NCBI GenBank assembly: GCA_964480435.1
Contig: CAYZSS010000003.1
Coordinates: 18,527-50,526 of the forward strand
Direction of reading: 5' to 3'
Length of the DNA stretch: 32,000 nt
From: an uncultured archaeon
GTDB taxonomy: Archaea > Iainarchaeota > Iainarchaeia > Iainarchaeales > 0-14-0-20-30-16
Made by a program: the position numbers and the translations under genes. The notes under the pieces were generated by a model. The model was not told the DNA's origin and searched no databases. It saw only the letters and a program-made list of their open reading frames with translations. Each line of letters opens with the position of its first letter. Within the stretch, counting starts at the first letter, position 1. Below, piece by piece: positions 3,912 to 32,000 of the stretch.

Positions 3912-3945
3912 ATTCCCATAACGGGGATTTGTTTCAGCTCTGATA

Positions 3946-3965
3946 CTTTTTGCAAAAGCAAAAAG
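3946..3965 (+). terminator. Hairpin CTTTTTGC-AAAA-GCAAAAAG downstream of sepF (possible terminator or RNA stability element)
   Basis: Perfect 8-bp stem with a 4-nt loop, 35 nt after the sepF stop. It is flanked by further small hairpins: TCCC..GGGA at 3914-3927 and GAAGAA-GCAA-TTCTTC at 3974-3989. Confidence 0.35.
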
Positions 3966-7774: not shown

Positions 7775-7858
7775 ACTTGCCTTTTTTTTGAAAAAAGGGT
7801 TTTGTATTGTATTTAAGCGACGTTTTTTCGCAACTTGCCTTTTTTTTGAAAAAAGGCA
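7775..7858. repeat. Two copies of a 24-nt palindrome-containing direct repeat ACTTGCCTTTTTTTTGAAAAAAGG, 58 bp apart
   Basis: Copy A is at 7775-7798 and copy B at 7833-7856, and they are identical. Copy B extends to a 10-bp-stem hairpin, TGCCTTTTTT/AAAAAAGGCA (7836-7858), which ends 1 nt before tRNA-Asp. A related TTTTTGAAAAAAGTTACTTG lies just after the tRNA (7944-7963). Confidence 0.75.
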
Positions 7859-7859
7859 G

Positions 7860-7931
7860 GCCCAAATGGTCTAGTGGTTATGATGGGGCCCTGTCGAGGC
7901 CTCGATCCGGGTCCGATTCCCGGTTTGGGCG
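7860..7931 (+). tRNA. tRNA-Asp (anticodon GUC)
   Basis: Hand-folded, 72 nt. The acceptor pair GCCCAAA/TTTGGGC is perfect. The anticodon stem GGGCC/GGCCT carries loop CTGTCGA. The T arm is CCGGG-TCCGATT-CCCGG with discriminator G. Position 55 of the T loop reads C instead of the near-universal U. Confidence 0.85.
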
Positions 7932-9349: not shown

Positions 9350-10960
9350 TTAAATGCTTTTAACGGTCTTAATGCCAAGAAGGTTAAGCCCGTTTTTTAT
9401 TATCTTATTCGATTCTTTTAATATTGCAATTCTATTTTCTAATTTATCTTCATCTCCGCCAATGATTTTTGTTTCTTCATAATATGAATTTATTAATGAA
9501 GATAAATCAAATAAGTATCTTGCTAAAAAGTGAGTAGTTAAATTTTTTACACACTCATCAACCTTATTATTATACTGGGCAAGAAGCCGTAATATATCTT
9601 TTTCCTTTTCTGTATATACTTCGGTAATTTTTTCACCTTTTGCCTTGGATTTAGTGATTATACTTTGTGTTCTCACATAATTATAAAGTAAATAAGGCCC
9701 TGTGTCCCCCCTGAGATCTAAACTTTTTTCTAAATCAAACACAAAATTTGCTTTTGCATCGTATTTTAAAATATAATATTTCATTGCTGCTAATGTAATT
9801 CCTTTTGCAATATCTTGGACTTCTAATTCTGTTAAATCCAGACGTTTTGATTTTGTTTGTTTGTATGCAACAGCTAAAAGAGCATTATAAAAATCAAAAA
9901 CAGTTACAATGTTCCCCTCTCTGCTACTTATTTTTCCATTATTTAGTGTTACTGTGCCATAGCCAACATGTGCGAACTTATTTTCAAAATTTAATCCAAA
10001 TCTTTTTAGAATTTCTTCAAGTTGTTTAAAGTATAAATTTTGAGAGTTATCTGTAACTATGATGCAATTATCTAAATCGTAATCAGTAAACTTCTTTTCA
10101 GTAAGTGCAATATCAGTAGTGGCATAAATTGTAGTGTTATCTGCTCTTAAAACTACTTTTTCTGGTAATGGGGCTAATTTTACAATATAATTTCCGCCTC
10201 TATCAATTTCTACAACGCCTTCATTATATTTCTCTAAAACCATTTTTCTTCCTGCTTCATAAATGCTACTTTCATAATATTCCGCATCGAATTTAATGTC
10301 TAGCAGTTTGTATACTTCGTGAAATCCTTTAATAGATACGTCTCTAATGTATTTCCAAATTTTTACTGTTTCTGGGTCATTATTTTCCCATTTGATTAAA
10401 ATTTCTTGAGCCAAGTCCTTGTATTTTGGATCTTGTTCTTCTAATTCTGAATATAGGCTATAACAATCATTAATGAATTTTGGAGTATCCTCTTTTTTAT
10501 TTTTATTATTTAGGTATCCTAAAATAGTTTTTGACATGTGTGTGCCTTTGTCATTGTACAATGTAGCTCTAATTACTGGTTGTCTTTGTTCAAGTATTCT
10601 TGCTAATGATTCTCCCAATATGGCCCCTCTAAGGTGCCCTACGTGCATTTCCTTATTTGGGTTTGGCTGAGAATATTCAATCATTGTTTTTATTTTGCCC
10701 TGTTTTGTTTTTTTGGAATTGTAAAAATAAGAAATAGGTTCATAAAAAATGTTCAAAAATAATCCTTTTTGTTCTACTTTTTCAATACCTTCAACTCTTT
10801 CTAATTCTTTTCTTAGTTTTTCAAGTTTTTTATTGTCGGCATCTGTTATTATGTCTTTAGCTATAATTGTTAAATCCCCGAATGACTTCTGTTTCGGTCT
10901 TATTATGCTGTATTCAGAGAAATATTTTGAGACAATCTTTTTTATATCCATAAAAATCAT
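9350..10960 (-). CDS. argS: Arginine--tRNA ligase
   Basis: 536 aa. The class I HIGH region reads YSQPNPNKEMHVGHLRGAILGESLARIL, and the C-terminal anticodon-binding DALR-type region is present. Its ATG overlaps the aIF-1A stop in an ATGA 4-nt overlap, suggesting translational coupling. Confidence 0.92.
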   Translation of the reverse strand: MIFMDIKKIVSKYFSEYSIIRPKQKSFGDLTIIAKDIITDADNKKLEKLRKELERVEGIEKVEQKGLFLNIFYEPISYFYNSKKTKQGKIKTMIEYSQPNPNKEMHVGHLRGAILGESLARILEQRQPVIRATLYNDKGTHMSKTILGYLNNKNKKEDTPKFINDCYSLYSELEEQDPKYKDLAQEILIKWENNDPETVKIWKYIRDVSIKGFHEVYKLLDIKFDAEYYESSIYEAGRKMVLEKYNEGVVEIDRGGNYIVKLAPLPEKVVLRADNTTIYATTDIALTEKKFTDYDLDNCIIVTDNSQNLYFKQLEEILKRFGLNFENKFAHVGYGTVTLNNGKISSREGNIVTVFDFYNALLAVAYKQTKSKRLDLTELEVQDIAKGITLAAMKYYILKYDAKANFVFDLEKSLDLRGDTGPYLLYNYVRTQSIITKSKAKGEKITEVYTEKEKDILRLLAQYNNKVDECVKNLTTHFLARYLFDLSSLINSYYEETKIIGGDEDKLENRIAILKESNKIIKNGLNLLGIKTVKSI

Positions 10961-11268
10961 TCTGGGATGTCTATTTTATCTAATACCCCATTAGCTCGTA
11001 ATCTTTTTACTTGATGTGGGTAGTATTTCCATATTATGTCTGCTTTTTTTGGGTCAAAATCCCAAATCTTAACAATTACTACGTCATTTTCTCTTAACCA
11101 TATTTTTTTTCTTAATCTTCCAGGTATTCTGCAAGATCTTTCAATATTATCATCACACATGCCTTTTAAAAATTCAGCACCGGTTTGTAATGTAATTATT
11201 GCTAAATGTTCATTGTTTTTCTCATTTGGCATCTTTAAACTATACTCTGTTCGTGTTACTTCTGGCAA
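10957..11268 (-). CDS. eif1a: Translation initiation factor aIF-1A
   Basis: 103 aa. The S1/OB-fold pattern is CRIPGRLRKKIWLRENDVVIVKIWDFDPKKADIIWKY. Confidence 0.9.
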   Translation of the reverse strand: MPEVTRTEYSLKMPNEKNNEHLAIITLQTGAEFLKGMCDDNIERSCRIPGRLRKKIWLRENDVVIVKIWDFDPKKADIIWKYYPHQVKRLRANGVLDKIDIPE

Positions 11269-16186: not shown

Positions 16187-16954
16187 ATGGATTTGGTGCT
16201 ACTAATTTCAATAGGTTTTACAATTTTTTTCTCTGCCTTGGCGGCTTATTTTGATTATAAAACTACTTATATTTTTGATTGGATAACATATCCAATGATA
16301 CTTGTTGGATTAATTCTTTTACCATTTAAATCAACTTGGTATATTGGGCTAATTTCTGCAGCAATTGTGTTTGTATTTTTTATTCCATTTTACAAATATG
16401 GTAAAATTGGTGGGGGGGACATAAAATATTTTTTGGGTCTTTGTTTGCTGATGCCGTATTATGGAAATATGTATTTCATATTGCCTGTTTTCTTTTTTGC
16501 TTCTGCCCTGGCGGGATTATTTTTTGGGATAAAATTTATTGTTTTGTTTTTATCAAAAAGGTATTATAATAACATAGGAAAAATGGAATTCATTTTGAAG
16601 CTTTTTCTTGCTCTTGCATTTTCAGTATTTGCAGGTATATTTTTGTCTTTTGGTTATAAGTTGTACATTGCAGTCTCCATTTCAATTTTGTTTTTTATTT
16701 GTATGTTTGTTTTACTTTTCCAAAATTATTTCTATATGCAATTTTCTTACAAAATTAAATTGGAAAATATTTTGGAAGATGATATTGTTGAACTTTCTTG
16801 TCTAAATAAAAAAGGTACTAAATTAGTTGATAAAAAATTGATTGCAGAACTAAAAAGTAAAAAAGTAAAAGAATTAATTGTTTATAGAAATCTACCTGTA
16901 TTCGCCCCATTTCTTTTTTTAGGCGTTATAATTTCTTTATTTGTTTTTTTATGA
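16187..16954 (+). CDS. Archaeal prepilin/preflagellin peptidase (A24 family, FlaK/PibD/EppA-like, GxGD aspartyl protease)
   Basis: 255 aa polytopic membrane protein. The first catalytic Asp context is AAYFDYKTTYIFD and the second is KIGGGDIKYFLG. A ~50-aa hydrophilic segment precedes the last TM. Confidence 0.8.
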   Translation: MDLVLLISIGFTIFFSALAAYFDYKTTYIFDWITYPMILVGLILLPFKSTWYIGLISAAIVFVFFIPFYKYGKIGGGDIKYFLGLCLLMPYYGNMYFILPVFFFASALAGLFFGIKFIVLFLSKRYYNNIGKMEFILKLFLALAFSVFAGIFLSFGYKLYIAVSISILFFICMFVLLFQNYFYMQFSYKIKLENILEDDIVELSCLNKKGTKLVDKKLIAELKSKKVKELIVYRNLPVFAPFLFLGVIISLFVFL

Positions 16955-19421: not shown

Positions 19422-19529
19422 TAAAAAGGGTATTAGATATAAGTTATATGTAGGTGTTTTTTATGGCTGTTGTAAGGAGAAAACCAATTAGGGATAATGT
19501 TGCTGAACCGGTAAAAAGGGTATTAGATA
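19422..19529. repeat. 18-bp perfect direct repeat TAAAAAGGGTATTAGATA bracketing the start of the giant ORF
   Basis: The copies lie at 19422-19439 (upstream of the start codon) and 19512-19529 (inside the ORF, encoding VKRVLDK), offset by exactly 90 bp. Confidence 0.85.
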
Positions 19530-22500
19530 AAAACTCAGTCGTAAAGCCAAAGAGAACAATTGGTGAAGAACGTACAGGTTTTGCAAAGGTGCATAAGGTC
19601 CGTAAATTACCACCTGGAAGAGAAATTAAAAAAGTAAAACAGCTATTAGAAACAAGAAACACAATCAGTAGTTATCATGAAAGATTAGAGAGATTGCCTC
19701 TCCCTAAGTTAGGAGAAGAATTAGCAAAAATTATAAAAAAATTAAAAACTTTAAGAAGAGATCTAACAAGATTAAAACCAAAGGATAAACGAAGAACAGG
19801 CTTAGAAATTCAAATAAAGGGTTTAACCCAAACAGAGCAAATAATTAGGTCTTTGGCAGATAAAATTGTTGCTGATAAAACAGAAAGAATAGAACAAGAG
19901 AAACTTGCAAAAATTGGTAGGGATCTGAAAGCTCAAGAAGTAAAATTGAGCTCTAAAGAGAAAAGTTTAGAGGAAAAATTTACTAATTTTAGACTGGAAT
20001 ACAGATATGGTGTAAGTGTTAAAAATGCACAGATATTATTAGACATAGTAAGTAAAATTGAAGCCCTAATGGGATCTAAAGATTTAAAACAAATGTCTAC
20101 AGAGTATATAACAAAATTATCTGTTTTGAAAGATGAAATTGAACGTGAATTGTCTGGTTTAGAACCTGAAGAAGAAAGAAGAGAGCCTTCAGAGGGAAAA
20201 CAAATTACTTCCGCAGAAAGAGAAGCTTTGGTTTTAGAGAAAAGATATTCAAAAGCATCACTTGATAAAGTAGTAGAAATATTTATTTCTGCTTTGAAAG
20301 ACCCTAAAAAAAATATATTTATACTTGAAAAATTTGGACGTCTAATTGGAACAAGAGCAAATACTATATTTACTTTAATTATGACGAATAATAGGTTAAC
20401 TCCCGCAAATAAAAGAAAAGAATTAATTGTTTTAAGCTCTCAAGTAGAAGATGCAATATCTCGAATATCTTTTTCTAGTAAAGGGTCTCCTTATGCTGCA
20501 AATCCAGTTAATGTTTTAATGGCTCTTGTAGAGCCAATAAGAAGAGAAATTGCAAAAATAGAGCCTGAGCAACAAGGGCAAGCAGCAAAATTACAAGCTG
20601 TAGTTGCACGGGAAAGGGATTTGCAAGAAGGACACGAGTTAGAAGATAAAATTAAAGCTTTATTAGCTGGGTTAGGAAAGGAGCCAGCATTAATGAGACA
20701 AATTAGAGCGGAATATGCTCGTTTGTTAGGATCTGGACCAGGTAAGGGGCCAGCATATTTAAAATTAAAACTTAGAGAATTGCAAGAACAAAAACTGTTA
20801 CCTCCTGGAACTCCAAAAGATCAAAAGCTATTAAGGGCCCCAACTCCTGAAGAAGAGTTGATGGAGTTTGGTAGAAGAAAAGAGCTGGCGGAACGTGATA
20901 GAAGAAAAGAATTGGAGTTACAAGCTAGAAGAGACAAAAACACAAGAATAATATTAAATAGACTTAAAGAATTAACAGATGAAGTAAGGGATGTAAAAAA
21001 AACACTTTACCAGTTAGTGGGTTTGCAAAAAAACCTTGCGGATTTGATTAGAACAAGAGGCGGAAGTTTAGAAATAAATATTACTGAAATAAGAGTGCAG
21101 ATGCTTGGACTTAGTGTTAATGGCGGGTTGTCTAAAAGAGTGGGGGATATTTTAGCAAGAATCTTATCAGAAATTGAAAAAAACCACGGGGCAACAAAAG
21201 AAGACCTAAGGGTATTAACTGAAATTTCAAAAGGCCTTGACAGAAAAGCAGAAGAAAGTCTAGGAAGAATAAAAGGTCTTGAAACAACTGTTAAAGCTAT
21301 TGCTGAGGATATATCAAAGAATCGTGAAGAACTGTCTGAAATGGGCAGAGGTCTTAAAGAACAACTTGATGAAATAATGGCTGAAATAAGAAACACAAAA
21401 AAGGAACCTCCAGTAGTAGGGGATTTTGAAAAAATATCTAATAGATTAGATATTATTATTTCACAAGTGGGTGAAAATACAGACCTGATAACCAGCATGG
21501 CGGGATTACAGAAAAGCCTTGAAGATGTGATAAAATCAAATAAGTCTGATTTAAAGGATGTTAAAGAAGCCTTGGCAAATATGAAAACACTAATAAATGA
21601 CTCTGAAGATAGGTTGTCAGAAGAATTTACAAGTGCTATGCAAGTAATTTCTGGTCAAATAAATGGGCTTGTTGAAACATCTGAGGAAGGACATAGATTA
21701 ACAAGAGGACAACTTACCTTTCTTGCAACAGTAACAAGAGATCTTAAAAATAGAGTAAGTGAAGGTTTAGTTGCTATTGATAAACTAAAAGATGAAGTAA
21801 AAGGTATGTCTGGCTCTGTTAAGGCATTAGAATCAGCCTCAGGTGAAAGGCATAAAGATATAACTGCAAAAATGGATAGAATTATGCGGGATATTGAAGA
21901 TGCAAGAAATGACATAGGTACAGATGTAGGTAATATTGTTGATGCAAGATTACATGAAATAAAAGAGGGTATAAGAACTTTAAATGATCATTCTGCAAGA
22001 GTTTTAGATCGTCTTGGTATGCTTAATGGTACTTTCTTATCTTTGGAACATTTTGATAAAGTTGTTACTGAGTCAATGGGAGAATTACGTGAAGGAATTA
22101 CCGTTGGTTATGATCAAATTGTTTTAGAAATAAAAGAGGCAGCAGAGAAAGTTATTGCTGAAGTAGGAAAGAAAGATCCTGAATTTGTAAAGAATCTGGA
22201 AAATAAATTAACGTCTTTAGAAGAAATGTCTATGCAAAATAGAGAAGATATTTTGAAAGTGCTTTCTGATATGCACGACTCAAGCACAGAAAGATTAGAT
22301 AGAATAGAAACACAAGTAATGCAATCAAGAGAAGACATACTAACAGTATTATCTGATATTACAAAAGGAACAGAAGCGGATAGGGAAATAAAAGTCTTGG
22401 CTGAGAAAATAAAAGAAATAGTAGAAACAAGGGGTGCCAAGGATACTTCTGTAATAGATGCAATAGAAAAAATTGCAGAAAGATTGGAAAATATTGACAA

Positions 22501-23362
22501 TAAACTTGACGCAAATAATAAAGTAATTGCTGATATTTTAAGAAAAGTAATTCAAGAAGAACTTGGAGAAAGACTTGTAAGAATGGAAGGTAAACTTGAT
22601 GCTCTTACAGCCGAAGGAGCAAAAAAGAGAGACACAGATAAATTAAGTAACCAAATTGATGAATTAAAACAAATGATTGCTGAAATGGGTCGTCGTGGCC
22701 CTGGAGAAAATCCGCCTGGAGGAAATGGTTCTGGGCAAGGTGGCGCAGGCTGGACTTATGGCCCTGGCGGATGGGTAAATAACAATAATAATAACAATAA
22801 TATCTTTGGTGGTGCAGGCGGACCAAATGGACCTGGTGGCCAGGGAGATGGTGGAAGACCTCGAGGACCTGGAGAAGATGGTGGTTCAGATGGTGGAGAT
22901 GAAACACCGAGAGGGCCAAGAGGAGAGGGCGGCTCTGATGGGGGGGATGAAACACCAAAAGGACCAGGTGGTAAGGATGTGCCTGAACCAGGAAATGATG
23001 ATGCTGGAAAGAAAGCTGCAGAGGATGCAAAGAAAGCAAAAGAAGCAGCTGAAAAAGCAGCAAAAGATGCTGCAGCAGCAGGCTCAAAAGAAAAGGCATT
23101 TAGCAAAGTAGCTGGCTGGGGGTTCGGGCTTGCTATTCCTGGGGCTCTAATAATGGTTTTATTATTTGTGCTATCTAGAATCTTTGGAAAAGGAACAACC
23201 TCAACAATAAGTACTGTAAAAACAGCTACAGTGCCTATAATGCCTATTACTGGGTCTGCGGCAAGTGCTGGAGGCGGTTTATTACCTTCTGGGTTTATGA
23301 CCCCGTTAATAATAATCGTTGTTCTTATAGCATTATTTATGCTATTTCCAAAAAGTAAGTAA
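19463..23362 (+). CDS. Giant (~1300 aa) coiled-coil protein with a basic N-terminus, a Gly/Pro/Asn low-complexity module and a C-terminal two-TM hairpin anchor
   Basis: The track ORF starts at GTG 19454; ATG 19463 has AGGTG 8 nt upstream. There is no N-terminal signal peptide. More than 1100 aa are heptad-like and rich in E, K, L and I. The tail carries WGFGLAIPGALIMVLLFVLSRIF and FMTPLIIIVVLIALFMLFP. It is the longest ORF in the window in AT-rich DNA. Confidence 0.8.
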   Translation: MAVVRRKPIRDNVAEPVKRVLDKNSVVKPKRTIGEERTGFAKVHKVRKLPPGREIKKVKQLLETRNTISSYHERLERLPLPKLGEELAKIIKKLKTLRRDLTRLKPKDKRRTGLEIQIKGLTQTEQIIRSLADKIVADKTERIEQEKLAKIGRDLKAQEVKLSSKEKSLEEKFTNFRLEYRYGVSVKNAQILLDIVSKIEALMGSKDLKQMSTEYITKLSVLKDEIERELSGLEPEEERREPSEGKQITSAEREALVLEKRYSKASLDKVVEIFISALKDPKKNIFILEKFGRLIGTRANTIFTLIMTNNRLTPANKRKELIVLSSQVEDAISRISFSSKGSPYAANPVNVLMALVEPIRREIAKIEPEQQGQAAKLQAVVARERDLQEGHELEDKIKALLAGLGKEPALMRQIRAEYARLLGSGPGKGPAYLKLKLRELQEQKLLPPGTPKDQKLLRAPTPEEELMEFGRRKELAERDRRKELELQARRDKNTRIILNRLKELTDEVRDVKKTLYQLVGLQKNLADLIRTRGGSLEINITEIRVQMLGLSVNGGLSKRVGDILARILSEIEKNHGATKEDLRVLTEISKGLDRKAEESLGRIKGLETTVKAIAEDISKNREELSEMGRGLKEQLDEIMAEIRNTKKEPPVVGDFEKISNRLDIIISQVGENTDLITSMAGLQKSLEDVIKSNKSDLKDVKEALANMKTLINDSEDRLSEEFTSAMQVISGQINGLVETSEEGHRLTRGQLTFLATVTRDLKNRVSEGLVAIDKLKDEVKGMSGSVKALESASGERHKDITAKMDRIMRDIEDARNDIGTDVGNIVDARLHEIKEGIRTLNDHSARVLDRLGMLNGTFLSLEHFDKVVTESMGELREGITVGYDQIVLEIKEAAEKVIAEVGKKDPEFVKNLENKLTSLEEMSMQNREDILKVLSDMHDSSTERLDRIETQVMQSREDILTVLSDITKGTEADREIKVLAEKIKEIVETRGAKDTSVIDAIEKIAERLENIDNKLDANNKVIADILRKVIQEELGERLVRMEGKLDALTAEGAKKRDTDKLSNQIDELKQMIAEMGRRGPGENPPGGNGSGQGGAGWTYGPGGWVNNNNNNNNIFGGAGGPNGPGGQGDGGRPRGPGEDGGSDGGDETPRGPRGEGGSDGGDETPKGPGGKDVPEPGNDDAGKKAAEDAKKAKEAAEKAAKDAAAAGSKEKAFSKVAGWGFGLAIPGALIMVLLFVLSRIFGKGTTSTISTVKTATVPIMPITGSAASAGGGLLPSGFMTPLIIIVVLIALFMLFPKSK
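22871..22969 (+). repeat. In-frame tandem repeat (51 + 48 nt) encoding GE(D/G)GGSDGGDETP(R/K)GP twice
   Basis: GGAGAAGATGGTGGTTCAGATGGTGGAGATGAAACACCGAGAGGGCCAAGA is followed by GGAGAGGGCGGCTCTGATGGGGGGGATGAAACACCAAAAGGACCAGGT. An (AAT/AAC)8 poly-Asn run lies at 22778-22801. Confidence 0.85.
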
Positions 23363-25461: not shown

Positions 25462-26277
25462 ATGCTTGAAAAAATTCTCGCGCAGGACATTCCTCTTTTT
25501 GAACTTGAGCAAAAGTTTTGGAAACAAATAAGTGAATTAGAAGATAAAATTAGAAGAACAAATAATGTTTCAAAAAAGGAAAAATATGGGAAAGAAATAC
25601 TCGTCCTTAGGGAAAAAATCAAAGCTCTTCAGCAAAATAATCCTGCTAAACTAAGATTCGAATTAAACACTCTTAGAGAGGCGCTTAAAGATAATGAAGA
25701 AGAAAATAAAAATTATTGGATACAGAATAAACTTCTCAAGGCTATTATTAATAGATATTTAAAAAACGAAAGTATTGGTTTAGAGGACTTGAAAAAACTT
25801 ATTTTACCAAATGATTTAAGTGTTTTGAGTATAAAGCAAGAAATAATTCCTGAAAATTATGTTTATGATGAGGACTATCTTGATGCTATAAAAAAACTAT
25901 ACTCTTATATAAAAAAAAATTATTCTATAATTGATTTATCATTACCTAATAAATACTGGTTGCCGCCACGAGACACTATTGAAGCGCAGGCAGGTGATGT
26001 ATTTGATATATCTGTGCTCATCTGTTCAGTACTTATTTCTTTAGGTGGGGATGATGCAAAAGTGTATGTTGTAGAACTAAATGATTTCTCAAGGCACGCC
26101 TTTGTAGTAACCAGATATAAAAAAAGAATATTGATTTTAGATCTAAAACAATCAGAAAATTATAACGATTATTTAGGTTATGAAAAAGATGTGTGGGCGG
26201 AATATTTGCCAAAAAGGCAAAGTATAAGAAAGAAAAAATATTCTTTTAATGACGTAAGTTTTGATTATCTTGAATAA
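25462..26277 (+). CDS. Cytoplasmic coiled-coil protein with a possible Cys-less transglutaminase-like fold; first gene of the plus-strand pilin operon
   Basis: 271 aa with no signal peptide. The C-terminal segment AQAGDVFDISVLICSVLISLGGDDAKVYVV...RHAFVV...RILILDL resembles the G-x-C...H...D transglutaminase-core spacing, but Val occupies the Cys position. The fold assignment is low confidence. The gene overlaps the next ORF. Confidence 0.45.
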   Translation: MLEKILAQDIPLFELEQKFWKQISELEDKIRRTNNVSKKEKYGKEILVLREKIKALQQNNPAKLRFELNTLREALKDNEEENKNYWIQNKLLKAIINRYLKNESIGLEDLKKLILPNDLSVLSIKQEIIPENYVYDEDYLDAIKKLYSYIKKNYSIIDLSLPNKYWLPPRDTIEAQAGDVFDISVLICSVLISLGGDDAKVYVVELNDFSRHAFVVTRYKKRILILDLKQSENYNDYLGYEKDVWAEYLPKRQSIRKKKYSFNDVSFDYLE

Positions 26278-26713
26278 AGGTTTTTTTATACTGTATTTTG
26301 TAGTAATCATTTTTTCTCTGCTTCTTGCCTTATTTTTTGTGTATTCGAATAATGATTATAAAGAAAAAGAATTAATTGAGGAATTCACAATATATTCAAA
26401 TAGTATTACTGATCAAACAGTTCTTGAAAATAACATATCTTATTTTATTAGAAAAAATATAGAAACTGAATTATACATTACCCAGGATAGAGGAGCAATA
26501 AAACTTGCTTTGGATCCTATAATAAAAAATTATCTTGTTTCTAATGGTTTTGATATTTCTTTACTTGCTACTGATTTATTTATTGAAATAATCCCTTTGG
26601 ATGATGTACTTCAGGTTAATTACCAGTATGTTTTTATCACAACCACAAAAAACACGGGGAAAAAAGTAATAATTTCTTCGGGGGCTATTTATGGGGGGTC
26701 CATTATTGTTTGA
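26261..26713 (+). CDS. Pilin-like protein, non-canonical class III signal (NKG/FFILYF)
   Basis: 150 aa. TTG starts are possible at 26261 or 26270 (the latter gives MNKGFFILYFVVIIFSLLLALFFV). It has a short basic leader ending K-G followed by a hydrophobic helix. The NKGFF matches the start of the 27629 gene. Confidence 0.55.
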   Translation: MIILNKGFFILYFVVIIFSLLLALFFVYSNNDYKEKELIEEFTIYSNSITDQTVLENNISYFIRKNIETELYITQDRGAIKLALDPIIKNYLVSNGFDISLLATDLFIEIIPLDDVLQVNYQYVFITTTKNTGKKVIISSGAIYGGSIIV

Positions 26714-26960
26714 CAAGCAAAAAGGGCAAATCTTTATTGAATTTTTGATTTCTTTTCTGATTATTTTATTTCTCTTTGGTTTTATTATTTCTTGTTTTAA
26801 TTATGACAAAATAGACTCAAAAATAAAATTAATAAACGAAAAAGTAAAGACTAAATATTGCCAACTTGAAAATAGCTTAAAGTATAATTATTTTGAAATA
26901 AGTTCAGATTGTGGTTTGTTTTTAAAAGAGGATGTATATGCAGAAAAAAAATATGGCTAA
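26691..26960 (+). CDS. Type IV pilin-like protein with a canonical archaeal class III signal peptide (DUF361-type)
   Basis: 89 aa. The N-terminus MGGPLLFDKQKGQIFIEFLISFLIILFLFGFII carries the KG/Q..IEF motif followed by a hydrophobic helix. Confidence 0.75.
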   Translation: MGGPLLFDKQKGQIFIEFLISFLIILFLFGFIISCFNYDKIDSKIKLINEKVKTKYCQLENSLKYNYFEISSDCGLFLKEDVYAEKKYG

Positions 26961-27636
26961 GAAAGCAATTTCAAGAAACCATTTCGCAAAGAAACTACTT
27001 TTGTGTAAAACAAAAGTATTTCAGTGGCTGAAGCATTTTGCAACTGCAAAATGTCTTCTTCCTAAAAAGCAAAATGTTTCAGGGGCTAACAAAGCTTTTT
27101 TGTGCAAAACAAAAAAGTTTGAGGGTCAGAAAAACTTTTCCAAGAAGTCAATTTTGTCTTTACACAAAATTGCTTCAGGGACTAAACCAATTTGCCTTTG
27201 CAAATTAGTTTTTTCTTTCGAAAAGTTACTTCTTACTAAAGAAATTTCTGTTTTTACAGAAATTTGCTTTTTCTCAAAGAACTTGTTTCAGAGCCACAAA
27301 TCTAAAGATAATGTGGCTAAGGGCTCATTTTCTTTGAGCCTCTTATTTACTATGTTATTTTTTTTGCTGTTCACATACCTGTTTTTTTTGGGTTTAAGTA
27401 ATATGCAAATAAAAATGGACAATTCCTTGGTCGCTCTTTACTATTCAGAAATTTCAGTCACAAAAAATAATGAAAAAGGAGTTGGCTTTGCGGAAATTAA
27501 TATTTTAGAACGCAGAGTAATGGCCAATAAAATTAAAGACGAAATTGTTATTACTGGCCTGCTCGCTGGTTACTCAATACCAAGGTTAATTTATGATGAT
27601 GGGATAAAAATAAAAGAGGCTGTTTTTAATGGCTAA
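26953..27636 (+). CDS. Pilin-like protein whose class III motif (AKG/SFSLSLLFTMLFFLLF) is preceded by a ~124-aa Lys/Cys-rich extension
   Basis: The track ORF is 26932-27636. ATG 26953 overlaps the previous gene's stop (ATGGCTAA). An internal GTG at 27313 would give a conventional 107-aa pilin starting MAKGSFSLS. The upstream 120 codons are stop-free in this frame only. Confidence 0.55.
   Translation: MAKKAISRNHFAKKLLLCKTKVFQWLKHFATAKCLLPKKQNVSGANKAFLCKTKKFEGQKNFSKKSILSLHKIASGTKPICLCKLVFSFEKLLLTKEISVFTEICFFSKNLFQSHKSKDNVAKGSFSLSLLFTMLFFLLFTYLFFLGLSNMQIKMDNSLVALYYSEISVTKNNEKGVGFAEINILERRVMANKIKDEIVITGLLAGYSIPRLIYDDGIKIKEAVFNG
26996..27265. repeat. Array of six short palindromes/hairpins inside the pilin leader region
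   Basis: 26996-27018 is TACTTTTGT-GTAAA-ACAAAAGTA. 27034-27053 is CATTTTGCA-AC-TGCAAAATG. 27095-27117 is CTTTTTTGT-GCAAA-ACAAAAAAG. 27149-27172 is CAATTTTGT-CTTTAC-ACAAAATTG. 27189-27206 is AATTTGC-CTTT-GCAAATT. 27242-27265 is AAATTTCTG-TTTTTA-CAGAAATTT. Confidence 0.85.
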
Positions 27637-27973
27637 TAAAGGTTTTTTTTGGCTTGCTGAAGTGGGTATTGGATTTATTTTTTTATTACTCTTTGGGGTT
27701 TTGTTTTTTAATTATTTAGACTCTGATAATGGTGGGCAAGTTTTTGCGTTACAAAAAGCAAATGATGTGCTCAGGGCAAATTCTTATTCTCATGAAGAAA
27801 TTTCGAAAGATGTTTTGGATCAATTTTTTGGTGATTTTGGCTATATTTGTTGTGTAGATCTGATGTGTTATTCAAATGATATAATTCAGAAAAATAAGTT
27901 GGTGAAAACCGCAAAAATCTTGTTTAAAAATCTAACTGAAAAAGAAGTATCACTTACTGTTTTCTATAATTAA
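27629..27973 (+). CDS. Pilin-like protein, non-canonical class III signal (MANKG/FFWLAEVGIGFIFLLLF)
   Basis: 114 aa. The start overlaps the preceding gene's end. It has a short basic leader ending K-G followed by a hydrophobic helix. The 3' end overlaps the convergent pilin gene by 24 nt. Confidence 0.6.
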   Translation: MANKGFFWLAEVGIGFIFLLLFGVLFFNYLDSDNGGQVFALQKANDVLRANSYSHEEISKDVLDQFFGDFGYICCVDLMCYSNDIIQKNKLVKTAKILFKNLTEKEVSLTVFYN

Positions 27974-28369
27974 TTCTATTGTTTTATTTTTTGTTAATTT
28001 TACTGAATATTTTCCTGGATCAAAATTATTGCTTTCATCTATGCAAGTATTACTGGAATAAGTTTTATTTGTGTTCTTTGATGACCAAGAGATATTATTT
28101 CCGTCAGCAGAAAAATTCCAAAAATTATTTAGATTTAAATTTGTATAAATTATACTTCCTTCTCCTAAATAGCAAATTTGATTTATTTCTTTTGTAAAGT
28201 TTTTTATGTTTGCTAAATCGAAAGATATTGTTGTGTAATTATACACTTTTATGAGTATTGGGATGAAAAGTGAAATAATTGCAATAATGATAAGTAGAAT
28301 AATCAAAAATTCAATACTCAATTGGCCGCTATTTTTTTTAATTGGTGTCCCCAATTTTGTCAATGTCAT
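27950..28369 (-). CDS. Type IV pilin-like protein with a canonical class III signal peptide
   Basis: 139 aa. The N-terminus MTLTKLGTPIKKNSGQLSIEFLIILLIIIAIISLFIPILI carries the G/QLSIEF motif. Confidence 0.75.
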   Translation of the reverse strand: MTLTKLGTPIKKNSGQLSIEFLIILLIIIAIISLFIPILIKVYNYTTISFDLANIKNFTKEINQICYLGEGSIIYTNLNLNNFWNFSADGNNISWSSKNTNKTYSSNTCIDESNNFDPGKYSVKLTKNKTIELIIENSK

Positions 28370-28535
28370 TAAAAATGTCCTCGGTTTTTGAGTCTATTTT
28401 TTCTGATGCCTTGTTTGTTGTTTTTGTTAACTGGGTTATTACTATTGCAGCAATTGCAATTAAAGCAGCCAAAATTATTATTAACTCCGCTGAAAGTTGT
28501 GCTTTTTTATCTATAATGAACTTTATCATCAGCAT
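28338..28535 (-). CDS. Very small type IV pilin (65-aa precursor), candidate major pilin
   Basis: MLMIKFIIDKKAQLSAELIIILAALIAIAAIVITQL... has a KA/QLSAE class III motif. A TATA-like ATTTATAC lies ~20-26 nt upstream of the ATG on the minus strand (plus coordinates ~28553-28560), suggesting a leaderless or short-leader mRNA. It overlaps the next pilin gene by 32 nt. Confidence 0.7.
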   Translation of the reverse strand: MLMIKFIIDKKAQLSAELIIILAALIAIAAIVITQLTKTTNKASEKIDSKTEDIFNDIDKIGDTN

Positions 28536-29820: not shown

Positions 29821-32000
29821 ATGAAAATTCCATCTACTGTGGGGTCATTTGAATATCGCCCTAAGAGTGCGAATCTAAAAATTTATTCCGTAGTAATGCT
29901 ATTTTTTGCATTTTTCCTTATAGTTTCCCTTAATTTTGCCACAATTCCTAATAATATTCCTGATAATAAGTTGCCTAGTTATGCAGTAAGTTCTGCAAAA
30001 GTAAAAAATGCGGATTTTATCCCACTTGATTATTTTAATGATAAAGCACCAAAAGAATTTAACTTTGATTTTTCTGGTGAGTATTACTTGTTCTTTTCTT
30101 CCAATTGGAAAAATTTAGCACAATCACAAACAGGGATAAAATTGAGCCACAGTTCTAGGGCTGGAAAGAGAGCTTATATTCCTTATGTTTCTTCTGGTTC
30201 CTTTGTTTTAGAAAATATGAAACTAAACAGTTTTGGAACAATTTATGCTGTAGAACTTATTCCAAATGCGGTAAGCCCAGCAAACACAAATATTTCTTTT
30301 AAAGTAAACGATGATACTTATGATGACATCGCATTTTTAGGAAACACTAATGATTTGGAATTAAAAGTAACTTTGTCCACATCTGCGTCTTATTATACTC
30401 CTATTTTAAAGGATTTAACAGTAAAATTATATCCAATAAAAAGTATCCAAATTAACCCTATCGTTTTACAAACTTCGGAAGACTTTATTTCAGTGAATTT
30501 AAAAAATTATATTACTTATTATGATTTTGCATCTGAAAATTTAACTTATTCTCTTGTAGGTAATACTCTTCCTTGTAATGTAAATCACTCGGCTTTAACT
30601 TGTAATGACTTGTCTGAAGGTACTTATTATTTGAATTTAAATGTAAGAGATAAAATAACAAACGCAGAATCTTATGCCCCAATTGAAATTATAATTAATA
30701 GTGATTCTCCTTATTTTTTAGATTTACCTATAATTGAAGCAGATGAGGATTCTCTTGTAGGCCCATTAAACTTGGAACCGTATATTTCAGATCCAAATAA
30801 TAGTGCTGATGAATTAACAGTGAGTATAATGTCTGTAAGCTCTTCTAATGGTATTAATTGTTCCCTGAACGGTTTTGAATTAAATTGTAGTGCAAATAAA
30901 GATTACTTTGGTAATTCTTCAGTAACTCTTAAAGTAATTGATCCTCAAGGAAACTTTTCCTTAGCTGATTTACAAATAAAAATAGCCAGCGTAAATGATC
31001 CTCCTACCTGGAAGGAAATTTCAGGATATAATTTAGAGGCTGGTCAAACACTGAATATTAACCTAGGAAATTTTGCATCTGATGTGGATAATTCTAATTT
31101 AGCTTACGAAATAAAAAGTAGTAATTCTTTAAGTTGTAATTTAAATAATTCTATAATTTCTTGTAATCCTACAATAACTCCACTTTCAACAAGCTTGGTA
31201 GTTTCCGTTTCAGATGGTGAATTTGAAGTAGAAAAAACAATTCCTGTTTCATGGAGTGTTTCTAATTTGGGCCCTGTATTTACTGGGGAAATTATGGGGA
31301 AAACAGTTGTTGGCAGTAACCCTTTAAATTTCTCTGCAAACCTAAGTTCTTATTTTTCAGATCCTGAAAATACTCCCTTAACTTATACTATTGAATATGT
31401 TTCAGGCAGCAATACTGTATGTGAAATCTCTTTAGATTTGCTAAATTGTGCTGCACAGGGAAATGGATTCACAGATGTAAAAATAAAAGCCAGCGACGGG
31501 GAGAAAGAAGTTTATTCTAATATTTTTAGATTAGCAAAAGTTAATTCAAATGATTTAACTGCTACAGTAAGTGTTCCTCACACAGTGCCTTTGAATTATA
31601 CTGTTTATTTCCAAGTTTATGTAACAAATAACTTAGGATTTTATTTAGAAGGTATTGAAGTAACTGCAAGTTCAGATTCTTTAACTATCTTTGATGGTGC
31701 TCCTGAAGGTCACAATAGCATCACAGAAGTAATTCCAAAAATTGATCCTAATTCAACAAAGACTTCAGAATTTCATGCAACAGTAGCAAATATAGAGAAA
31801 ACTCACTCGGTTTCCTTGGCCTTAACTGGCTCTATTTTAGATTCTAAAGAGATAGAAACAAAGAATATGTTTTATGCTGCTGGTAACGGCTTAGTAACCA
31901 TGTGGCAAGACAAAGGAGACAATGATGGTGCAGGATATTGGGGTACAGGGATGCAAGATATGGTGCCTAAAGATAACAAACTAAAAATCCGAGTTCACAT
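29821..32000 (+). CDS. Partial large surface adhesin-like protein with four cadherin-like/Ig-like tandem repeats (continues past the window end)
   Basis: My own translation from ATG 29821 is open to 32000 (726 codons), so it is absent from the track. It has an N-terminal signal anchor, IYSVVMLFFAFFLIVSLNF. Four ~90-aa repeats (nt ~30433-31536) each carry an L-(T/A)-Y ... C-x(6-8)-C pair. One inter-repeat boundary carries ASVNDPPTW. Confidence 0.75.
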   Translation, partial: MKIPSTVGSFEYRPKSANLKIYSVVMLFFAFFLIVSLNFATIPNNIPDNKLPSYAVSSAKVKNADFIPLDYFNDKAPKEFNFDFSGEYYLFFSSNWKNLAQSQTGIKLSHSSRAGKRAYIPYVSSGSFVLENMKLNSFGTIYAVELIPNAVSPANTNISFKVNDDTYDDIAFLGNTNDLELKVTLSTSASYYTPILKDLTVKLYPIKSIQINPIVLQTSEDFISVNLKNYITYYDFASENLTYSLVGNTLPCNVNHSALTCNDLSEGTYYLNLNVRDKITNAESYAPIEIIINSDSPYFLDLPIIEADEDSLVGPLNLEPYISDPNNSADELTVSIMSVSSSNGINCSLNGFELNCSANKDYFGNSSVTLKVIDPQGNFSLADLQIKIASVNDPPTWKEISGYNLEAGQTLNINLGNFASDVDNSNLAYEIKSSNSLSCNLNNSIISCNPTITPLSTSLVVSVSDGEFEVEKTIPVSWSVSNLGPVFTGEIMGKTVVGSNPLNFSANLSSYFSDPENTPLTYTIEYVSGSNTVCEISLDLLNCAAQGNGFTDVKIKASDGEKEVYSNIFRLAKVNSNDLTATVSVPHTVPLNYTVYFQVYVTNNLGFYLEGIEVTASSDSLTIFDGAPEGHNSITEVIPKIDPNSTKTSEFHATVANIEKTHSVSLALTGSILDSKEIETKNMFYAAGNGLVTMWQDKGDNDGAGYWGTGMQDMVPKDNKLKIRVH

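Follow-up and report, generated by a model that had tools for sequence, protein, structure and literature searches.

In-frame insertion of palindromic DNA into protein-coding genes has been described for the Rickettsia palindromic elements (RPEs) and for coding palindromes of Wolbachia and Methanocaldococcus jannaschii (Ogata 2000; Ogata 2005; Suyama 2005; cited in PMC2996958 and PMC10969869). As RPEs are outlined in the two citing papers, they are hairpin-forming DNA of 100–400 bp that lies in frame within a conserved protein-coding gene, is absent from orthologues, and adds a peptide without homologues at a site tolerant of extra residues. The same can be said of the subject of this report, a hairpin-rich stretch in gene X, a pilin-like gene (26938..27636, + strand; 232 aa; protein P0001) of an uncultured archaeon (contig CAYZSS010000003.1), whose leader is interrupted by what is almost certainly a lineage-specific insertion. 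Coordinates are positions in the 32,000-nt stretch of DNA that was analyzed (the window). An earlier note on this DNA held that no described system resembles the locus, a statement that the precedents above, as summarized in those papers, correct.

Homologues of Gene X and the Insertion

Homologues were sought by a word-indexed search of 5.8 billion protein clusters, by an exhaustive HMMER search of 1.84 billion representatives, and by a scan of JGI metagenome contigs. In the word-indexed search the gene X protein matched itself only, and HMMER added three further clusters only (P0002–P0004; 117, 112, and 113 aa), all of which align solely to gene X residues 125–233; no relative of the region ahead of the conserved leader end was found among the 1.84 billion representative proteins. 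The contig scan yielded the additional loci L008–L010, whose leaders are short too. Overall, the leaders of the relatives comprise 9–14 residues (MQNPSMAKDKG/SFS, MLKKSMAKG/TFS, MLRKNMVRVIVPKG/SFS, MRGKNTVKG/SFS, and MQNQNITKG/SFA; the slash marks the cleavage site), and the protein alignment with the homologues contains a single clean gap of 120 residues. Conservation of a pre-leader in homologous loci, which the earlier note had proposed to examine, is not seen: the stretch is absent from every homologue.

The DNA junctions were compared with L004–L010. The window DNA is collinear with these relatives through a Shine–Dalgarno (SD)-like motif and the first ATG, up to ATGGCTAAG; the window then has 360 additional bases, and collinearity returns at GGCTCATTTTC. 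This comparison shows a putative ancestral leader, M-Q-K-K-N-M-A-K-G/S, split after A-K by the 360-bp insertion. Pairwise identity of gene X is 53–57% to the L004/L008/L009 group and 47–48% to L006 and L007; because the window gene groups with the former and L006 and L007 are more distant, we infer that the insert is derived, and a single insertion on the window branch would be the parsimonious history. The L004 relative belongs to a metagenome-assembled genome labelled “Candidatus ainarchaeum sp.” (JAQTTP010000011.1), a label that apparently stands for Candidatus Iainarchaeum, phylum Iainarchaeota, DPANN. In L006 and L007, the relatives for which flanking DNA was recovered, gene order is conserved: a 150-aa-like gene, an 85–89-aa gene, X, Y, and a 139-aa-like gene in reverse orientation. 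The stretch is thus almost certainly an insertion specific to this lineage rather than a conserved domain ahead of the leader, and what is annotated as a 232-aa “hypothetical protein” consists of a normal pilin-like protein of ~110 aa and the insert.

The region is 100% identical in three independent ENA assemblies (L001–L003), and a chimeric join is therefore excluded, which disposes of the assembly artefact that the earlier note had envisaged. No length variation of the insert was seen among four assemblies.

As delimited here, the insertion spans 360 nt (26962..27321, + strand), namely 352 nt plus the second copy of an 8-nt direct repeat, TGGCTAAG, and amounts to 120 codons with no stop. 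The first copy (26954..26961) lies within the ancestral leader codons ATG GCT AAG, and the second (27314..27321) regenerates the A-K codons ahead of the cleavage-site Gly; the boundary is ambiguous by the length of the repeat, and the insertion can equally be placed at 26954–27313. TGGCTAAG occurs exactly twice in the window, both strands counted, at 26954 and 27314; its recurrence at a distance of 360 nt had been seen at first reading. With one mismatch allowed, the flanking repeat may be 12 nt long, AAT[A/G]TGGCTAAG. A repeat search found no terminal inverted repeats pairing the insert ends; the termini share instead a direct mini-repeat, TTTCGCAAAGAA / TTTCTCAAAGAA (repeat family D9).

Hairpin Units of the Insert

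Six distinct perfect palindromes with arms of 7–10 bp and centres of 2–6 nt are present in 26996–27265 (26996–27018, 27034–27053, 27095–27117, 27149–27172, 27189–27206, and 27242–27265), bearing out the number and density originally reported. Palindromes of the same type number 40 in the other ~31.7 kb of the window (~0.34 per 270 nt), and in ~98 kb of other loci their density reaches at most 4 per 300 nt. Compared with shuffles, RNA folding of the stretch gives z = −6.4 for the + strand and −6.5 for the − strand. The insert consists of six to seven degenerate units of 40–60 nt, each with a perfect 7–10-bp hairpin; a unit has a conserved loop-proximal TTTGY/RCAAA core and a TTTCAGGGGCTAA linker.

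The six hairpins (h1–h6, all given on the + strand) have dG values of −6.8 to −10.8 kcal/mol. Segment A1 (26976..27067) carries h1 (26993..27021; perfect core 26996–27018, 9-bp arms, loop GTAAA, dG −8.7) and h2 (27033..27054; CATTTTGCA-AC-TGCAAAATG, dG −9.3). It is directly repeated, with five indels, as segment A2 (27131..27224), which carries h4 (27144..27176; 9-bp perfect arms plus a GAAG/CTTC extension, dG −10.8) and h5 (27184..27211; core AATTTGC-CTTT-GCAAATT, dG −6.8). The two segments, ~155 nt apart, align with a local score of 33 vs. 17.1 ± 2.5 in shuffles, and their stems differ by compensatory double changes. Between them lies h3 (27092..27120; a 12-bp stem with one G-T pair, loop GCAAA, dG −10.2), a paralogue of h1 by repeat family D1, and beyond A2 lies h6 (27239..27268; 10-bp perfect arms, loop TTTT, dG −9.5), a paralogue of h4 by family D2. 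These relationships (A1 to A2, h1/h3, h4/h6) show that the units are related through nested duplications. The repeat that had been noted at 99-nt spacing (26986–27018 and 27085–27117) is real, with 23 of 33 positions identical by hand count and overlap with D1; it does not form part of a regular tandem array, and Tandem Repeats Finder finds nothing in the stretch. One unit start, GGGCTAACAAAGCTTTTTTGTG (27083..27104, + strand), matches the 5′ end of the neighboring pilin-like gene Y at 18 of 22 positions (P ~0.0015–0.005 vs. shuffles), so that the likeness to gene Y first seen by eye holds.

When the stems are tabulated directly, outward from the loop, positions 1–5 are near constant (T/C-G-T-T-T paired with A-A-A-C-A/G), and each of positions 7–9 shows three Watson–Crick pair types; of these 18 cells, only one holds a mismatch and one a wobble. 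The stems thus stay paired although their sequences vary. The linker motif AAAACAAAAGTATTTCAGTGGCT is present in four copies, at spacings of 58, 41, and 55 nt, and is read in two frames (VFQW and FEGQ vs. VSGA and ASGT); hence the repeats exist at the level of DNA, not of protein. Copies of the D1 motif likewise start at offsets 0, 1, 0, and 1 relative to the open reading frame (ORF). The two strands are of equal stability, and G-T mispairs are balanced by C-A mispairs, which gives no hint of an RNA constraint acting on one strand.

Two other descriptions of the array were considered and rejected. As one long palindrome, its halves score alike in direct (33) and inverted (35) comparison, and the inverted pairs differ in centre, giving no single axis. 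As a clustered regularly interspaced short palindromic repeats (CRISPR) array, its best repeat family (23 nt, 70–78% identity, at the 58-, 41-, and 55-nt spacings) is neither near-identical nor regular.

Directly 3′ of the insert, a GC-rich hairpin (GGCTCA-TTTTCTT-TGAGCC, 27322–27340, dG −10.1) covers the G/SFSLS codons of the native gene. In the relatives the equivalent positions use other synonymous codons and form no hairpin, which makes this a lineage-specific native hairpin. The process that forms palindromes may extend into native sequence here.

Reading Frame and Translation

The ORF of gene X is confirmed at 26932..27636 (234 aa), of which gene X as called is the part from 26938. Between 26932 and 27312 the gene frame contains no stop, compared with 2, 9, 9, 3, and 8 stops in the other five frames, in agreement with the earlier note; its view that so long an open run is improbable also holds, at 0.09% of 20,000 dinucleotide-preserving shuffles open in the gene frame (P ~1e-3). 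Additionally, the length of the insert is a multiple of 3.

Coding quality was scored as codon-usage log-odds per codon, trained on 14 window genes. The insert, read in the ORF frame, has a score of 0.106; 86 real 360-nt gene segments score 0.385 ± 0.076 with a minimum of 0.204, small pilin-like genes 0.22–0.32, and the body of gene X 0.243. The encoded peptide is, as described at the outset, rich in Lys and poor in acidic residues (21% Lys, 10% Phe, 5% Cys, and 4% acidic residues vs. 14.6% acidic in window genes), with 6 Cys and not the 7 counted before. This odd composition is what the TTTTGY/RCAAAA arms encode, and the Lys/Cys/Phe-rich peptide is a by-product of their translation. AlphaFold assigns residues 1–130 a predicted local distance difference test (pLDDT) score < 50.

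An SD-like GAGGA (26928..26932, + strand) lies 5 nt before ATG 26938 and matches the GGAGG placed 6–7 nt ahead of the first Met in every relative. Operon-internal genes at this locus have a G-rich SD-like motif 9–13 nt upstream; the first genes of transcription units are without one. A possible alternative start is the in-frame GTG at 27313..27315 (+ strand; MAKG/SFS...), a mutated copy of the ancestral second ATG, upstream of which no SD-like motif is present. The short leader that is a feature of class III pilins would be found in gene X only if this GTG were the start: from 26938 or 26932 the leader is 128–130 aa long, vs. 9–14 aa in the orthologues. Read-through from 26938 is favored by the upstream SD-like motif and ATG, the open frame, and the length divisible by 3. 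To judge from these features of the DNA, translation probably runs from 26938 through the insert, giving a leader of ~128 aa that ends in a regenerated A-K-G/S.

Downstream of the insert, the cleavage-site Gly (27322–27324) and hydrophobic segment SFSLSLLFTMLFFLLFTYLFFLGL (27322..27396, + strand) are assigned from the alignment with homologues. Within the cleavage context AKG/SFSLSLLFTMLFFLLFTYLFFLGL, K, G, F, S, L, and F do not vary across the alignment of four homologues, and the class III pilin feature of [K/R]-G followed by ~20 hydrophobic residues is present in gene X. The conserved extracellular body (27397..27636, + strand; YSEI..TK.N..G.GFA..I...R motifs) is 47–57% identical to the relatives.

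Origin of the Insert

From the insertion, its hairpin-unit architecture, the maintained pairing, and the lack of protein-level conservation, we propose the following explanation. The array would have arisen locally, by microhomology-bounded duplication or template switching that created or perfected palindromes, and further duplications would have expanded it. Translation from the conserved SD-linked ATG at 26938 would run through the insert, and only in-frame, stop-free versions would leave the downstream pilin expressed, which would account for a frame that is open despite the indels between units. The Lys-rich extension of ~128 aa would stay cytoplasmic according to the positive-inside rule, and a candidate prepilin peptidase of the A24 type (Peptidase_A24, PF01478, E = 1.7e-12; 16187..16954, + strand) may remove it together with the leader at AKG/S, so that the mature pilin would be unchanged. 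In a pilin, the leader may be the only site at which 120 junk residues do no harm. Taken as a whole, from local palindromic amplification through translation from the ancestral start to harmless removal of the leader, we give this explanation about an even chance. Support for a local origin comes from the failure to find a second copy, from the nested direct duplications, and from the one unit that resembles the gene Y start. As to where the array came from, the third suggestion in the earlier note (a duplication- or slippage-prone cassette built from pilin 5′ ends) came closest: the flanking 8-nt repeat, the nested duplications, and the gene Y-like unit agree with it, and variation in length is not seen in the four assemblies.

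Several points count against this explanation. An exact 8-bp flanking repeat looks the same whether it is a target-site duplication or duplication microhomology. The perfect stems could reflect an RNA or DNA function and not a mutational process. The leaders of reviewed class III signal peptides comprise 6–26 aa (PMC4471445), and the ~128 aa of gene X are far outside that range. The search for further copies at DNA level is limited to ~38 kb of this genome. Finally, in gapped comparison the interior of the insert shows no significant similarity to the ancestral start region or to the start regions of five relatives (P 0.5–0.9); derivation of the units from the start region of gene X itself, convincing by eye, was accordingly rejected as not significant with six gapped probes. 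A decayed duplicate of the gene X body, arising via unequal crossover between two ATGGCTAA starts, was considered as well; the repeat search of 26850–27450 gave no extended similarity.

The best of the alternatives, which we nonetheless regard as unlikely, is that a dispersed, non-autonomous palindromic mobile element, of a miniature inverted-repeat transposable element (MITE), repetitive extragenic palindromic (REP), or RPE-like kind, transposed into the leader. The insert would then be a single member of such a family that duplicated 8 bp of its target site and persists owing to a chance in-frame position. The small size (352 bp), the wealth of hairpins, the lack of an ORF of its own, and an exact 8-bp direct repeat confined to the two junctions would all suit such an element, as would the in-frame palindromic inserts of Rickettsia, Wolbachia, and M. 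jannaschii as these are summarized in PMC2996958 and PMC10969869. Against it, terminal inverted repeats are absent, and DNA searches of ~38 kb of this genome, namely the 32-kb window and a further 6 kb to its left (locus L017), revealed no second copy; nor did those of related loci. The insert has no match in phages, plasmids, or viral contigs, where four viral matches to the h1/h3 core are isolated single palindromes. Six-frame peptides of the insert find no match in the 5.8 billion protein clusters (NCBI, JGI, and ENA; the gene X protein included), and no transposase domain is present among the window ORFs. Given the failed copy searches, the nested duplications, and the absence of terminal inverted repeats, we consider local amplification about twice as likely as a dispersed mobile family.

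Less probable is that the stretch serves as a structured RNA, either an untranslated leader or an intercistronic element, with translation starting at GTG 27313, hairpins that regulate stability or translation, and a frame that is open incidentally. The strength of the predicted fold (z = −6.4), the six perfect hairpins whose outer pairs covary, and weak codon usage in the stretch are in keeping with it, and the GTG lies exactly at the ancestral Met codon, from which a normal 4-residue leader would result. Opposed to these stand the open frame (P ~1e-3) in a length that is a multiple of 3, and the SD-like motif and ancestral ATG upstream, with none before the GTG, such that ribosomes starting at 26938 would read through. 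Equal folding of both strands and balanced G-T and C-A mispairs indicate palindromes at the DNA level. Rfam 15 identifies only two tRNAs elsewhere in the window, all matches in the region being far below gathering score; no tRNA or tmRNA is present in the region, and the stretch is absent from all relatives. The suggestion of structured RNA in the earlier note is weakened by the strand symmetry, the lack of G-U asymmetry, the lack of an Rfam match, and the lack of an SD-like motif before the GTG.

The hairpin array could also be a functional module, a prospect to which we attach a small probability: either hairpin DNA that amplifies itself and targets, or is selected in, disposable pilin leaders, or a translated leader whose mRNA hairpins or released basic 128-aa peptide regulate pilus assembly. 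The synonymous-codon hairpin at 27322–27340, the perfect stems with their covariation, and a frame that has stayed open across several indels fit this reading. If it is true, large cytoplasmic cargo could be carried and then shed by class III signal peptides.

It is more doubtful still that the insertion inactivated gene X, leaving a young pseudogene with a frame open by chance. A single-lineage event, a ~128-aa leader far beyond the known range (PMC4471445), and several paralogous pilin-like genes nearby that could compensate are consistent with such a loss. An open frame would, however, have a chance of only ~1e-3; moreover, all 30 invariant positions downstream of the insert are intact in the body, whose codon score is normal (0.243), the K-G/S site is regenerated exactly, and the sequence is identical in four assemblies.

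Very improbable, finally, is a functional cytoplasmic domain of 120 residues, basic and Cys-rich, that binds metal or nucleic acid and, once cleaved, is released or retained: the open frame, the 21% Lys and 6 Cys, and the retained cleavage context speak for it, and against it speak the lack of a homologue in the protein searches, its absence from all orthologues, a composition fully explained by the palindrome arms, DNA motifs repeated in different frames, pLDDT < 50, and a codon score below that of every genuine gene segment. Of the long leader domain with which the earlier note began, the long leader is probably made; the domain fails for want of a homologue, by its low codon score, and by the motif read in two frames.

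Three further candidates were discarded. A bulge-helix-bulge intron would need two 3-nt bulges with a 4-bp helix between them, formed by the splice junctions; in a hand check with the AAG bulges that the repeats imply, AAAG (26962–26965) fails to pair with GGCU (27315–27318) in this central helix; an intein would need intein termini, of which there are none; and translational bypass finds no stop or take-off context across the 360-nt gap.

Genomic Context

The window is AT-rich (~30% G+C) and contains archaeal markers, namely an RNase P Rpr2 subunit, the Peptidase_A24 gene, and class III signal-peptide genes. Gene X is part of an operon of small overlapping pilin-like genes (25462–27973, + strand), 10 kb upstream of which sits the Peptidase_A24 gene. 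The preceding pilin-like gene (26691..26960, + strand; 89 aa; MGGPLLFDKQKG/QIFIEF...), ComGE-like with a weak N_methyl match, overlaps the start of gene X, as it does in relatives, and its place in the gene order is the same in L006 and L007. Gene Y (27629..27973, + strand; MANKG/FFWLAEVG...) follows by ORF call. More class III signal-peptide genes lie on the − strand at 27950–28535. Gene X has no match in Pfam, including Class_IIIsignal (PF04021), and no family in Pfam or NCBIfam at E ≤ 0.1; the neighboring 65-aa and 139-aa genes match PF04021 (E = 5.6e-6 and 1.1e-3, respectively). In L004 (6287–9123), a radical-SAM/SPASM gene with small ORFs beside it comes within a few kb after the pilin-like genes, a neighborhood that is absent from the window. 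A scan of genome contigs with the 271-aa neighbor protein gave no match.

Palindromes at two other places may be mentioned. At 3930–3965, downstream of a SepF-like ORF, GTTTCAG is followed by the palindrome CTTTTTGCAAAAGCAAAAAG (3946–3965; 8-bp arms), which has a TTTGC/GCAAA core as in h2 and h5; its overall similarity to the insert is within background. The palindrome CCTTTTTTTTGAAAAAAGG is present in two copies (7780–7798 and 7836–7858) just upstream of a tRNA-Asp (7860–7931). A 21-mer, AGAAAAAAAATATGG[C/T]TAAGA, is common to 26942–26962 (+ strand) and ~11095–11115 (− strand) at 20 of 21 positions; the second copy is inside a 103-aa ORF (10957–11268), and, with the copies in different frames, the match is probably a coincidence of Lys codons. 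To judge from its RKKIWLRE motif, this ORF may encode an aIF-1A.

Variation between assemblies was seen elsewhere in the window. A 12-nt tandem repeat, AATAACAATAAT (22778–22802; 2.1 copies), inside a 1302-aa ORF (19454–23362) has one unit fewer in assembly L001, an in-frame copy-number polymorphism. Of 19 differences between the window and L002, 17 fall in the 340 nt of 31068–31409, within the long ORF that continues past the right end of the window, and form a locally hypervariable patch in a strain that is otherwise near-identical.

Comparison With Known Systems

Gene X shares with class III signal peptides the K-G/S context and a hydrophobic helix of ~24 residues, as in its orthologues, and an A24 peptidase is encoded 10 kb away. 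It would differ from them in leader length (~128 residues vs. 6–26 in those reviewed in PMC4471445 and 9–14 in the orthologues). Should the long precursor be made and processed, the leader tolerated by an archaeal prepilin peptidase would exceed any reviewed five- to tenfold in length. In that case the leader would also be a safe harbor for junk or selfish DNA in an essential surface-structure gene, with the mature protein unaltered.

Other palindromic and mobile elements are matched in part. Like the MITEs of PMC10969869, the insert is small, non-coding by origin, flanked by 8-bp direct repeats, and open to in-frame fusion; unlike them, it is without terminal inverted repeats, other copies, or a cognate transposase in the data searched. 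With REPs and bacterial interspersed mosaic elements (BIMEs) it shares a cluster of short, imperfect to perfect palindromes with a common core, in mixed orientation and separated by short linkers; REPs, however, are extragenic, number hundreds of copies, and are served by a REP-associated tyrosine transposase (RAYT), whereas this cluster is intragenic, single, and archaeal. Palindromic amphipathic repeat coding elements (PARCELs) are likewise dyad-symmetric DNA that encodes repeated amphipathic peptide segments in a membrane-targeted protein. PARCEL is a tandem 25-residue (75-nt) motif that the DUF285/TIGR02167 profiles recognize, whereas gene X belongs to no Pfam or NCBIfam family at E ≤ 0.1, and the insert has an irregular period and a motif read in different frames.

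We found no description of in-gene hairpin inserts from DPANN-type archaea in the literature. The closest counterparts are RPEs, with which the insert has in common an in-frame, stop-free insertion absent from orthologues and palindromic DNA. As RPEs are portrayed in PMC2996958 and PMC10969869, they are multi-copy (tens of copies) with a conserved peptide, and each is one long palindrome; the insert has no second copy in the searches made (~38 kb of DNA, and protein clusters) and is an array of six short hairpins. Unlike an RPE, it interrupts a signal-peptide leader whose removal by cleavage is expected. The locus offers a natural example of hairpin DNA becoming new peptide, the de novo birth of a protein segment that has been proposed for RPEs, and the insert is best filed as a variant of the in-frame, RPE-like palindromic inserts rather than as a new pilin domain.

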